Below the pieces are notes generated by a model, which did no database searches, was not told the origin of the DNA, and saw only the letters and a program-made list of their open reading frames with translations. This document shows positions 329 through 4,480 of a stretch of 4,480 nucleotides of DNA, in pieces. The stretch lies in assembly GCA_000004985.1 (NCBI GenBank), contig GG739184.1. The stretch is one strand, 5' to 3'. Source of the DNA: Naegleria gruberi (taxonomy: Eukaryota). The translations under genes were made by a program, and so were the position numbers. Every line of letters begins with the position of its first letter. Position 1 is the first letter of the stretch.

Positions 329-400
329 ATGCAAAAGTCTTTCTTATTGATCTCTCTTCTCTGTGTGATTGCGTTCTTGCACTTGTTCCCTGTTGAGGGA
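329..400 (+). other. Predicted N-terminal signal peptide (about 24 aa)
   Basis: MQKS followed by an uninterrupted hydrophobic stretch FLLISLLCVIAFLHLF, then PVEG-G (small residues at -3/-1, a plausible signal-peptidase site). The cleavage position is approximate. Confidence 0.55.
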
Positions 401-663
401 GGCACTGGACAAACTATTGTTGGTGATTTGAACATTGATCCTGTATTGGGATTAGATGCTAGTGAGACCAGATTTAGGTACCTCAGTTCCTTCTGTTTAG
501 ATCCAAGAAATGGCGATATGTACGTAGCTGATGACCATTTCAACAAGGTTTTCAAGATTGATCATCAAACCAATGTTGTCTCTTGGTTTGCTGGTAATGG
601 TGTTGAAACCAAATGTGCTAGAACTGGACCAAACTATTGCAACGACAAAACAGACAAATTATC
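329..663 (+). CDS. 5' end (N-terminus) of a large secreted NHL-repeat / EGF-repeat protein; the coding sequence runs into the N-run
   Basis: ATG 329 is the first ATG after the in-frame stop TAA at 299..301 (frame 2). The translation MQKSFLLISLLCVIAFLHLFPVEGG... is a classic signal peptide. It is followed by an NHL-blade-like segment (...LDPRNGDMYVADDHFNKVFKIDHQTNVVSWFAGNG) and then VETKCARTGPNYCNDKTDKL. This second segment has the same AG-x-G...C...C...KL linker architecture seen repeatedly after the gap (e.g. VAGSAGNCASGTCATFSASATDSTAKL). The ORF is still open at 663, where the Ns begin. The ORF-track entry 329..2143 is real only up to 663. Confidence 0.75.
470..661 (+). repeat. First NHL-type beta-propeller blade plus the Cys-pair linker of the next blade (pre-gap)
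   Basis: The GDMYVADDHFNKVFKID motif (Tyr codon at 521) matches the G-x-[IV]-Y-[VF]-A-D-x-x-N/H-x-[IV]-R-K-I blade core repeated after the gap. The following segment KCARTGPNYC (Cys codons at 614 and 638) matches the C-x(4-7)-C linker found ahead of later blades. Confidence 0.55.
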
Positions 664-2110
664 NNNNNNNNNNNNNNNNNNNNNNNNNNNNNNNNNNNNN
701 NNNNNNNNNNNNNNNNNNNNNNNNNNNNNNNNNNNNNNNNNNNNNNNNNNNNNNNNNNNNNNNNNNNNNNNNNNNNNNNNNNNNNNNNNNNNNNNNNNNN
801 NNNNNNNNNNNNNNNNNNNNNNNNNNNNNNNNNNNNNNNNNNNNNNNNNNNNNNNNNNNNNNNNNNNNNNNNNNNNNNNNNNNNNNNNNNNNNNNNNNNN
901 NNNNNNNNNNNNNNNNNNNNNNNNNNNNNNNNNNNNNNNNNNNNNNNNNNNNNNNNNNNNNNNNNNNNNNNNNNNNNNNNNNNNNNNNNNNNNNNNNNNN
1001 NNNNNNNNNNNNNNNNNNNNNNNNNNNNNNNNNNNNNNNNNNNNNNNNNNNNNNNNNNNNNNNNNNNNNNNNNNNNNNNNNNNNNNNNNNNNNNNNNNNN
1101 NNNNNNNNNNNNNNNNNNNNNNNNNNNNNNNNNNNNNNNNNNNNNNNNNNNNNNNNNNNNNNNNNNNNNNNNNNNNNNNNNNNNNNNNNNNNNNNNNNNN
1201 NNNNNNNNNNNNNNNNNNNNNNNNNNNNNNNNNNNNNNNNNNNNNNNNNNNNNNNNNNNNNNNNNNNNNNNNNNNNNNNNNNNNNNNNNNNNNNNNNNNN
1301 NNNNNNNNNNNNNNNNNNNNNNNNNNNNNNNNNNNNNNNNNNNNNNNNNNNNNNNNNNNNNNNNNNNNNNNNNNNNNNNNNNNNNNNNNNNNNNNNNNNN
1401 NNNNNNNNNNNNNNNNNNNNNNNNNNNNNNNNNNNNNNNNNNNNNNNNNNNNNNNNNNNNNNNNNNNNNNNNNNNNNNNNNNNNNNNNNNNNNNNNNNNN
1501 NNNNNNNNNNNNNNNNNNNNNNNNNNNNNNNNNNNNNNNNNNNNNNNNNNNNNNNNNNNNNNNNNNNNNNNNNNNNNNNNNNNNNNNNNNNNNNNNNNNN
1601 NNNNNNNNNNNNNNNNNNNNNNNNNNNNNNNNNNNNNNNNNNNNNNNNNNNNNNNNNNNNNNNNNNNNNNNNNNNNNNNNNNNNNNNNNNNNNNNNNNNN
1701 NNNNNNNNNNNNNNNNNNNNNNNNNNNNNNNNNNNNNNNNNNNNNNNNNNNNNNNNNNNNNNNNNNNNNNNNNNNNNNNNNNNNNNNNNNNNNNNNNNNN
1801 NNNNNNNNNNNNNNNNNNNNNNNNNNNNNNNNNNNNNNNNNNNNNNNNNNNNNNNNNNNNNNNNNNNNNNNNNNNNNNNNNNNNNNNNNNNNNNNNNNNN
1901 NNNNNNNNNNNNNNNNNNNNNNNNNNNNNNNNNNNNNNNNNNNNNNNNNNNNNNNNNNNNNNNNNNNNNNNNNNNNNNNNNNNNNNNNNNNNNNNNNNNN
2001 NNNNNNNNNNNNNNNNNNNNNNNNNNNNNNNNNNNNNNNNNNNNNNNNNNNNNNNNNNNNNNNNNNNNNNNNNNNNNNNNNNNNNNNNNNNNNNNNNNNN
2101 NNNNNNNNNN
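664..2110. other. Run of 1447 N (assembly gap or hard-masked sequence) interrupting the gene
   Basis: Directly visible. The non-round length (1447) suggests masked real sequence or a size-estimated gap rather than a conventional fixed spacer. Nothing inside can be annotated. Confidence 0.99.
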
Positions 2111-2111
2111 G

Positions 2112-4480
2112 AGGTGGTCAGCTACTGCAGCAACGTTCTCTAATTCTATCATAGTTGCAGTTGACAGCAATGACAACATCTACGTTATGGACAATGGTGT
2201 ATATGTTTTAAGAATGATTAGAGCTAGCAATGGAAATATAGAAAGAGTGGCAGGTACCTATACCACTATCTGTTCTGACGGCAATTGTGGAGATGGAGGA
2301 AGTGCACTCAGTGCCAAATTGACAGCTGTAAAGAATATTGAAATTCATCCAATTACTGGTGACATTTACTTGGCGGAAGCTAACAGAATCAGAAAAATTA
2401 GTGGTGGTATTATCAGTACAGTTGTTGGTGCTTTTGGAAGAAATTATGATTCTTTAGTCACTGGTGCCTGGGCAAATCCGTTGGATGTTGGTATTGCCCC
2501 AACAAGAATTTCCTTCTCACCTACTGGTCAATTGTATTTCAATGATGGTAGTTCTTATTGGTCAATGCGTACTTTGAAAGATGGATTGGTTAGACCTGTC
2601 TCTGGATTTTTAATTTCCACAACAGACAGGTTTAATTACAATGGAGAAGACTTGCTACCAACTAAGGTAAAACTCTCAAATCCAACTTCAGTGTTTTTGG
2701 ACTCGAATGGCAATGTTTTTGTTGGTTGTTCTGGAACCTCAAGTACAACTGGAGGTGAAAATGATGCCAGAATTGTAAAGGTTGATGTCAATTCCAATAC
2801 TGCTTCCACATTCATTGGAACTTTAACTGAGGCTTCAGCAATTTCTGAAAACACAATTAGAACCAAAACTTCACTCAAACCATATGCTTCAATCTATACA
2901 GGTCTTTATACACCCTTCGGAATTCATGTAACTCCAAACGGAGATGTATACTTTGCAGATCCAAGTCGTTATGTAATCAGAATGTACAATGCAACCCTGG
3001 GAACTGTTAGTACAATTGCAGGTACTATGAACACAGTTTGTACCGATAGTATTTGTGATAATGGTCAACCAGCACTAAGTGCTCATTTCAAACTCCCGAC
3101 CTCAATATTCGTCACCGACGATGGAACTATTTATGTCTCTGATACTCAATTGCATCAAATTAGAAAAATTCAGAATGGAATTATTACAGCAATTGCTGGA
3201 ACTGGAACTCAATGCACCACTGCAGGATCTAATACTTGCGATCATGGTTCTACATCTCCATTGCGCGTTGACTTGTATACTCCAATGGGTATTTATGTTA
3301 CCAAGAGTGGTGAAGTATATTTTGCAGATACTTCCAACCATAAGGTTAGAAAAATCTCAAGTGATGGCCTCACCATAACTACAGTGGCCGGATCAGCTGG
3401 AAATTGTGCCTCTGGAACTTGTGCCACTTTCAGTGCATCCGCTACAGACTCAACTGCAAAACTCTTCTATCCAACTGGAGTTGTTGTCAATGAAACATCC
3501 GGTTCAATTTACATTGCAGATCAAGGAACTCACACCATTAGAGTAGTTTCTTCAAATGGTTCAATGAGTGTTTATGCTGGTACTTTCCCAGGCATGGCGT
3601 TCAATGATGCTGGAGCCACTCAATTCAGTGCAGAAGGATCATCAAAGTACCTTAATTTACCAACAAGTATTTTCCTTAAAGATAACTCAATTTATGTGAC
3701 AGAGCCAGTTTTTGGAAGAGTTAGACGTGTGACTCAAAACTGTAGAGCTGGATATGGTGGCGATAATTGTGAAACTCCTATTTGTTTTGAAATTCTGGCA
3801 ACTTATTCAACCGTTTGTTCAGGAAATGGTGCATGTATTGAAAGTGACACTTGTCAATGTAATGCTGGAAGTTCAGGAAGTAATTGTTCTCAAACAACTT
3901 CCAATTGTAGATCTGGTTTCTATGGAAGTAATTGTGAAATTTCCAATTGTTATGGAAAGTTTTCAAATGATTCATCTGTTTGCAGTGGGCATGGCCGTTG
4001 CAATTCAACTGATTCCTGCTCTTGTTCACCTAACTATTTTGGAGGAAATTGTCAAATTACAACATGTTTCAATACTCAAAGTAATGACAGCTCAGTATGT
4101 TCTGGACATGGTGTATGCTCATCCTATGATCAATGTTCATGTAATTCTAATTATTATGGATACAATTGTAATATTACAACATGTGGAGGAGTATTTTCAA
4201 ATGACTCTAGTGTCTGTAGTGGTAATGGAAATTGTGTTGATTTTAACCAATGTAATTGTGTACAAAACTCTGGTTCCAATTGTGCTGAACCAATAATCCC
4301 AACAATCTACTGTTTTGGAATTCTTGCCAATGATTCAAATATTTGTTCTGGAAATGGTCAATGTAATGCAACTGATATCTGTATTTGTGATTCTCTATTC
4401 TCTGGTTTCGATTGTTCGAATGATACCTCTAATGCTAACAATAACAGTACTTTTAATAACAATACCAACACTGACAATAG
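2112..4480 (+). CDS. Continuation of the same secreted protein: NHL beta-propeller blades, then tenascin-type EGF-like repeats, then an Asn/Thr-rich tail. It is open at both ends (5' into the N-run, 3' past the window edge)
   Basis: I translated frame 0 by hand codon by codon from 2112 to 4480. That gives 789 sense codons and no stop. The product shows strongly periodic, recognisable domain content: nine blades with a Y-[VIF]-x-[DE] core, then CSG[HN]GxC...CxC...GxxC EGF repeats. Every other long ORF the track lists in this span is in frame +1 or antisense. The track omits this ORF, presumably because it contains no in-window stop and its start is upstream. Confidence 0.85.
2163..3737 (+). 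repeat. Array of nine NHL-type beta-propeller blade repeats (183-192 nt, i.e. about 62-aa, period)
   Basis: Blade-core Tyr/Phe codons fall at 2181, 2367, 2535, 2718, 2949, 3132, 3318, 3510 and 3693. The corresponding motifs are DNIYVMD, GDIYLAE, GQLYFND, GNVFVGC, GDVYFAD, GTIYVSD, GEVYFAD, GSIYIAD and NSIYVTE. Most are followed by x-x-[IV]-R-K-I and G-x-I-[ST]-T-[IV]-A-G. Several are preceded by A-L-S-A-x-[LF]-x-x-P, which is the GDGG-x-A-x-x-A-x-L-type NHL consensus. The Pfam NHL (PF01436) assignment comes from motif recognition and has not been computed. Confidence 0.7.
3741..4415 (+). repeat. Tenascin-type EGF-like repeat array: five six-cysteine repeats plus two two-cysteine half-motifs
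   Basis: The translation reads CRAGYGGDNCETPI, then CFEILATYSTVCSGNGACIESDTCQCNAGSSGSNCSQTTSN, then CRSGFYGSNCEISN. Three 39-aa units follow, beginning at 3948, 4065 and 4182 (CYGKFSNDSSVCSGHGRCNSTDSCSCSPNYFGGNCQITT, CFNTQSNDSSVCSGHGVCSSYDQCSCNSNYYGYNCNITT and CGGVFSNDSSVCSGNGNCVDFNQCNCVQNSGSNC...). A fifth unit starts at 4311 (CFGILANDSNICSGNGQCNATDICICDSLFSGFDC). This is the C-x(n)-C-S-G-x-G-x-C-x(4,5)-C-x-C-x(5,8)-G-x-x-C spacing typical of tenascin/teneurin-type EGF. Confidence 0.8.
4416..4480 (+). other. Asn/Thr/Ser-rich low-complexity segment. The coding sequence continues past the window edge
   Basis: Frame-0 translation SNDTSNANNNSTFNNNTNTDN with no stop before 4480. The sequence is built from aat/aac/act codons and contains several N-x-[ST] sequons. 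Confidence 0.6.

Follow-up and report, generated by a model that had tools for sequence, protein, structure and literature searches.

In PknD, the teneurins, SOQ1 and NHLRC2, beta-propellers built from NHL repeats act as binding modules outside the cell or in a lumen. The teneurins and the bacterial teneurin-like proteins (TLPs) are defined by a superfold consisting of an FN-plug, an NHL domain and a YD shell (PMC13018210), and the teneurins of animals are type II membrane proteins with the epidermal growth factor (EGF) repeats located N-terminal to this superfold (PMC13018210). Here we describe a gene from Naegleria gruberi in which NHL blades and EGF repeats occur in the opposite order. The analyzed window is an entire scaffold (GG739184.1) with a length of 4480 bp. 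Its plus strand from position 329 to 4480 very probably represents one incompletely assembled gene for a secreted, probably membrane-anchored surface glycoprotein, with an open frame of 789 codons forming the large 3' part of the gene. An earlier inspection of the letters alone (the sequence-only reading) had described this frame as NHL blades followed by EGF repeats. Our analysis confirmed the observation and supported this description.

The NHL domains of teneurins and bacterial TLPs (PDB 6fb3, 9g2f and 9ifo) share with the Naegleria protein the six-bladed NHL propeller (E 1e-16 to 1e-18) and the association of compact six-cysteine EGF modules with the NHL part. The Naegleria protein differs from them in that the EGF modules are located C-terminal and not N-terminal to the NHL part, in a signal-peptide-like start instead of a type II anchor, and in having more than a single propeller. 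As a fold, the complete propeller is matched best overall by the extracellular sensor domain of PknD and the designed protein Pizza6 (PDB 1rwi and 3ww9). In PknD this domain is an extracellular ligand-sensing head, a role that we only infer for the Naegleria propellers. In contrast to the Naegleria protein, both PknD and Pizza6 are much more compact, with about 42 amino acids per blade, and have a single propeller without EGF modules; PknD is additionally linked to a kinase.

Translation of the window in frame 0 yielded 789 codons without a single stop, starting at position 2112, the first full codon of this frame past a run of N, and ending at 4478. This bears out the count given by the sequence-only reading; a stop codon in frame 0, which was looked for as a point against it, is not present in 2112-4478. 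After the gap the other two plus frames contain 81 and 22 stops and the three minus frames between 39 and 60. Using a per-codon stop probability of 0.067 from the local base composition, the probability of such a stop-free run is about 1.5e-24. The frame is still open at base 4480, the end of the scaffold, and the 3' end of the gene is absent. A mechanical list of the open reading frames (ORFs) of the window does not contain this frame because it is open at base 4480 without a stop: the list excludes ORFs running off either end of the window, and this alone suffices as an explanation. The sequence-only reading had attributed the omission to the lack of both a stop and an ATG within the window; the first reason is correct, the second is not.

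To characterize the domain content, the translation was compared with the Pfam models. The first ~545 residues match TEN_NHL (PF25021) with 98 bits at a cut-off of 27.1 (E 7e-28) and, as expected by the sequence-only reading for an hmmscan search, NHL (PF01436) with 64.7 bits at a cut-off of 20 (E 4.5e-18). In NCBIfam, a prokaryote-oriented library, only NHL-type matches far below the threshold were found (ScyF, ScyE). The first 543 residues were cut into blade units at the recurring '...AG' strand ends. The nine units located after the gap and one unit located before it align on the NHL core hydrophobic-x-V-D-x-x-G-x-[IV]-[YF]-[VI]-x-D ... R-[IKV]. A hidden Markov model (HMM) of the blade, built from these aligned units and iterated on relatives, detects eight of the nine blades after the gap as well as the one before it. 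The proposed number of nine blades was reached with AlphaFold2: a model of the 789 residues with 49 homologues (mean predicted local distance difference test, pLDDT, of 74) contains nine consecutive blades, eight of them four-stranded and the last one three-stranded, and their positions agree with those given by the sequence-only reading. The mean blade length is 60 amino acids.

The six blades adjoining the EGF array are predicted to form a closed six-bladed NHL propeller. A separate AlphaFold2 model of residues 166-557, which comprise these blades 4 to 9, reached a predicted template modeling (TM) score of 0.81. Foldseek searches with blades 4 to 9 resulted in TM-scores of 0.82-0.87 to Pizza6 and 0.80-0.82 to PknD (normalized by target) and of 0.67-0.70 (normalized by query) to the NHL domains of teneurin-2 and a Bacillus TLP. 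With the model of the 789 residues, the Foldseek matches in the PDB were NHL propellers only (the bacterial teneurin-like protein 9ifo, SOQ1, NHLRC2, Pizza6, PknD and teneurins). Since blades 4 to 9 are modeled as one closed propeller, we read blades 1 to 3 as the C-terminal half of another propeller ahead of it, whose first half would be lost in the gap. Pairs of cysteines (C-x3-8-C) are located in the inter-blade loops ahead of four of the nine blades after the gap (2271-2288, 3039-3056, 3213-3239 and 3405-3422). Such pairs were found in none of the Naegleria paralogues examined, and only four of 41 bacterial relatives contain any. On one face of the propellers they may form small loops stapled by disulfides.

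The C-terminal part of the translation matches EGF_2 (PF07974) with 36 bits at a cut-off of 22.1 and EGF_Teneurin (PF23106) with 36.2 bits at a cut-off of 24.3. Five modules conform to the pattern C-x(6-12)-C-x(3-6)-C-x(4-6)-C-x-C-x(6-10)-C, and together with two half modules they occupy the positions at which the sequence-only reading had placed at least five EGF repeats. The assignment to the EGF-like domains and the prediction of an EGF_2 match were thus correct, whereas the tenascin-type and the predicted hEGF match were not: neither hEGF (PF12661) nor EGF_Tenascin (PF18720) matched this protein at E <= 1. EGF_TEN (PF25024) reached 42.2 bits and remained below its cut-off of 65. Because hEGF and EGF_Tenascin gave no match, the modules are best typed by sequence as EGF_2/teneurin-like. 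In the AlphaFold2 model they appear as five small helix/hairpin modules with a pLDDT of 65-83. The C-terminal 246 residues contain 34 of the 43 cysteines, and 12 of the 15 N-x-S/T sequons are located in 3741-4478, which comprises the EGF array and the tail. This distribution suggests a heavily N-glycosylated EGF stalk. Many sequons are found at an equal position in successive modules (SNDSS, and NxT between modules).

The gene does not start at 2112 but upstream at 329, on the same strand as the 789-codon frame. Between the in-frame TAA at 299 and this position neither ATG, GTG nor TTG is present, and the ATG at 329 is therefore the first possible start. The ORF before the gap opens with MQKSFLLISLLCVIAFLHLFPVEG, and its Kyte-Doolittle hydropathy averages 2.2-3.2 over residues 3-13. 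The hydrophobic segment (amino acids 3-20, about 335-388 in the window) resembles a signal peptide, which would be cleaved off, and is followed by an NHL blade detected by the blade HMM (amino acids 41-89, 449-595). In BLASTP this blade resembles blades of paralogues (E 5e-7) and the blades after the gap (E 2e-6). The following inter-blade loop contains, at about 611-640, a cysteine pair (KCARTGPNYC). The coordinates of all features are listed in Table 1.

Table 1. Features of the N. gruberi scaffold. Positions refer to the 4480-bp window; a dot marks a feature without strand.
Feature	Coordinates	Strand	Description
In-frame TAA	299..301	+	Upstream of the start; no ATG, GTG or TTG between TAA and 329
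5' end of the gene, cut by the gap	329..663	+	Met, hydrophobic segment, NHL blade, start of the next inter-blade loop
Assembly gap	664..2110	.	Run of 1447 N, ~482 codons
NHL blades 1-3 after the gap	2112..2606	+	Amino acids 1-165
NHL blades 4-9	2607..3740	+	Amino acids 166-543; predicted complete, closed six-bladed NHL beta-propeller
EGF array	3741..4415	+	Pfam EGF_2, EGF_Teneurin; cysteine pattern; beta-hairpin modules
Half modules CxxG[FY]xGxxC	3741-3770, 3906-3935	+	Cysteine pattern
EGF1	3783-3887	+	Six-cysteine module
EGF2	3948-4052	+	Six-cysteine module
EGF3	4065-4169	+	Six-cysteine module
EGF4	4182-4283	+	Six-cysteine module
EGF5	4311-4415	+	Six-cysteine module
Asn/Thr/Ser-rich low-complexity tail	4416..4480	+	SNDTSNANNNSTFNNNTNTDN; ORF open at the scaffold end
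XP_002668244.1, first piece	329-593	+	MQKSF...WFA
XP_002668244.1, 'intron'	594..2154	+	Sole intron of the model; GT 594-595, AG 2153-2154; spans the N gap
XP_002668244.1, last piece	2155-4094	+	Protein mapped onto the window
GTATGT	4095..4100	+	Directly after the last codon of XP_002668244.1; consensus-like splice donor

The sequence-only reading had also stated that the gene is missing from the ORF list. This holds for the mechanical list and does not extend to the public annotation. The best database match (P0001) is XP_002668244.1 / EFC35500.1, a 'predicted protein, partial' of N. gruberi with 735 amino acids and 100% identity, which covers 647 of the 789 codons (82% of the frame) and in addition amino acids 1-88 of the part before the gap. 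Its cluster consists of a single member, and the protein collection searched contains neither a second near-identical copy nor a version that spans the gap. The gene is therefore already in public databases and is composed of known domain families, and in this respect the finding is an ordinary one.

The deposited model deviates from the frame at two positions. The only intron of the model is likely a gap-bridging artefact, which discards the coding sequence 593/594-663 and 2112-2154. Several hundred unsequenced codons are masked by this pseudo-intron. At the 3' end, the deposited model most likely treated the GTATGT at 4095 as a splice donor. Reading through this position results in ...NDSS|VCSGHGVC..., which matches the motif NDSSVCSG[HN]G of the neighboring EGF modules. 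Judged by this motif, the donor is probably false, and because the read-through restores the conserved EGF motif, the 128 codons from 4095 to 4478 are considered to be coding. These codons, which are absent from XP_002668244.1, comprise part of EGF3, the modules EGF4 and EGF5 and the Asn-rich tail. The 789-codon frame is thus an improvement of the deposited 3' end.

Relatives with an identity of 28-34% were found in N. gruberi (P0032, P0108, P0016), N. lovaniensis (P0003, which is C9374_003885, and P0028), N. fowleri (P0006) and a metagenome (P0002). Their common layout begins with a hydrophobic N-terminus, continues with 6, 12 or 18 NHL blades and EGF_2/EGF_Teneurin modules, and closes at the C-terminus with a hydrophobic segment, which is of the transmembrane or glycosylphosphatidylinositol (GPI) type in the paralogues P0003, P0006, P0016, P0032 and P0108 and is followed in relatives by a tail of 0-6 or 24-29 residues. 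The hydrophobic N-terminus, the NHL blades and the EGF_2/EGF_Teneurin array are shared by the protein described here. It differs from the Naegleria paralogues in its more divergent blades with longer loops (mean of 60 amino acids versus about 52) and in the cysteine-pair loops, which are not seen in the paralogues. Blade counts in 49 relatives cluster at multiples of six: 12 blades in 28 and 18 blades in five of them, and 6 and 24 were also observed.

The best non-self match is the metagenomic homologue P0002, a full-length, intronless protein of 1155 amino acids, which presumably originates from an environmental heterolobosean (L001, 2108-5575; ENA ERZ27315067, contig k141_1186492, 5.9 kb). 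Behind a signal peptide it carries about 12 NHL blades and about 13 EGF modules, and its C-terminus is hydrophobic. In N. lovaniensis two genes of the family, C9374_011612 (P0012) and C9374_011613 (P0028), are adjacent on one contig. In P0012 the EGF modules are located ahead of the NHL blades and the hydrophobic N-terminus is lacking; this looks like a gene model in which two successive tandem copies were fused, the end of the first being joined to the beginning of the second. Outside Naegleria, the NHL part is closest to multi-propeller proteins of bacteria, with 27-31% identity and E-values down to 1e-131, but such scores are inflated by repeat proteins and the database is mostly prokaryotic, and no conclusion on horizontal transfer is drawn from these matches. 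The bacterial proteins, to which the names 'sugar lactone lactonase YvrE' or 'NHL repeat-containing protein' are often assigned automatically, share the organization in 12 or 18 blades; they differ in that they are prokaryotic, lack an EGF array and carry other C-terminal modules. Searches of the literature on NHL, EGF or teneurin proteins of Naegleria revealed nothing relevant, and where PMC3482391 mentions Naegleria, it deals with other toxin and immunity domains. An 'EGF-like domain-containing protein' of N. fowleri (A0A6A5BKQ4, 105 kDa), which might belong to the NHL-EGF family, is reported in excretion/secretion products of clinical isolates (PMC12089049).

The connection between both sides of the gap has to be considered separately. 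The ATG at 329 is in frame 2 and the coding sequence after the gap is in frame 0. Because the two frames differ, the number of N does not correspond to the true length of the gap, and such a mismatch would arise from a gap size that is only estimated. The differing frames would equally fit two genes: one member of the family would start at 329 and end in the gap, and a second member, arisen by tandem duplication, would start in the gap and have the 789-codon frame as its 3' part. That members of the family can adjoin is demonstrated by the N. lovaniensis pair. The space required for this arrangement speaks against it. Even the smallest members comprise six blades, EGF modules and an anchor, altogether at least about 500 amino acids, and the second gene would need a signal peptide and the three further blades missing from the propeller of blades 1 to 3 (about 200 amino acids) plus intergenic DNA; the total is well above the estimated 482 codons (about 1.45 kb). 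Eight blades of 60 residues, on the other hand, fit into the gap almost exactly and would lead to 18 blades in three propellers, a count known in relatives. We therefore regard two genes as unlikely and favor one gene with further NHL blades hidden in the gap, which would be about eight if the size estimate holds; only one blade before and nine after the gap are visible. Three ORFs of the mechanical list that extend into the gap (329-2143 and 637-2154 on the plus strand, 659-2179 on the minus strand; 505-604 amino acids) are artefacts with N codons read as X.

A pseudogene or an assembly artefact, in the form of an unplaced small scaffold, a collapsed or chimeric repeat or a haplotig, has to be considered for a scaffold of only 4480 bp of which one third is N, and for a protein without a close orthologue whose best non-self match is only about 30% identical. 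However, nothing interrupts the 789-codon frame, every EGF cysteine keeps its register and the models show well-folded blades. Tandem Repeats Finder detected no repeats at the DNA level under the NHL or the EGF array that could promote a collapse. The protein repeats are therefore old and diverged and are neither recent expansions nor the result of an assembly collapse. A second near-identical copy is also lacking in the protein collection. An explanation by decay or misassembly thus appears very unlikely.

Membership in the teneurins was considered from the names of the Pfam models. The best Pfam and PDB matches are indeed named after teneurins (TEN_NHL, EGF_Teneurin, the TLP 9ifo and Teneurin-2), and in a true teneurin or TLP homologue the FN-plug and the YD shell would have to be located off the scaffold or in the gap. 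This candidate was ruled out by the architecture. The order signal peptide, NHL and EGF without FN-plug or YD shell stands against transmembrane type II, EGF and FN-plug/NHL/YD in the teneurins, and arrays of several propellers are not a feature of teneurins as defined in PMC13018210. No match to FN-plug, RHS/YD, TTR, ABD or Tox-GHH was obtained with the visible 900 residues or with the full-length paralogues, which terminate with an anchor closely behind the EGF array and have no YD shell. The teneurin-named Pfam models match because they are models of NHL and EGF domains, and we consider true homology to teneurins or TLPs highly improbable.

The chance that the real gene is one of the five ORFs displayed in this span by the mechanical list (3079-3378 and 3754-4296 on the plus strand, 2636-2878, 3102-3341 and 3778-4029 on the minus strand) is negligible. 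These are the only ORFs shown there, but, as the sequence-only reading had stated, they are out of frame or antisense; they comprise only 79-180 amino acids, have no Pfam match better than E = 0.02, with all matches far below the cut-off, and are each embedded in the 789-codon frame with its strong domain matches. A hydrophobic mini-ORF of 29 amino acids at the extreme 5' end of the window on the opposite strand (MFMFMSKDYYGVTMFLFGLLGAGLPKFNF, 15-104) is too short to be assessed; it could be a chance ORF or the edge of a neighboring gene.

Several points weigh against the interpretation as one gene for an anchored surface protein. If the 1447 N are taken literally, the frame changes from one side of the gap to the other, so that continuity across it is an inference. 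The 3' end is located off the scaffold and the anchor is not seen in this gene. The nearest paralogues are only 28-34% identical and may differ in details.

A cell-surface glycoprotein is nevertheless the interpretation that we prefer because of the signal peptide, the disulfide modules of the extracellular type, the dense sequons and the anchored paralogues. The protein would start with a signal peptide, followed by NHL blades arranged in six-bladed propellers (one blade before the gap, further blades in the gap, then three blades and one complete propeller). Behind them would come a stalk rich in disulfides, with at least five EGF modules, and a linker rich in Asn/Thr. The NHL propellers would act as ligand-binding heads, which a rigid, glycosylated EGF array would keep off the membrane. 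By analogy with the paralogues, a continuation of the stalk and a membrane anchor past the end of the scaffold are suggested; this transmembrane or GPI-type anchor would hold the protein on the surface of the cell. There it would most likely be involved in adhesion to or recognition of substrate, prey or other cells.

A more far-reaching proposal, to which we assign a small but appreciable chance, is that the NHL-EGF proteins of the Heterolobosea are lineage-specific surface receptors in which multi-propeller NHL arrays of the bacterial type were joined to a eukaryotic EGF stalk, with the present member having 18 blades, three propellers and disulfide-stapled loops. The nearest sequence relatives of the NHL part are the bacterial proteins with 12 or 18 blades and not eukaryotic NHL proteins. 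If this is true, the NHL-EGF fusion would be an independent parallel to the origin of the teneurins, in which a bacterial toxin scaffold was combined with EGF repeats, and this member would possibly be tuned to the recognition of prey or substrate.

For annotation, the scaffold demonstrates that an ORF list omitting frames open at the edge conceals the only real gene present, and that the public model was distorted by a gap-bridging pseudo-intron and by a probably false 3' donor at the cost of 128 codons. Taken together, the gene is one more divergent member of an uncharacterized, expanded family, the Naegleria surface proteins that carry NHL propellers on an EGF stalk. This family could bear on adhesion, on prey recognition or, in N. 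fowleri, on the interaction with the host.

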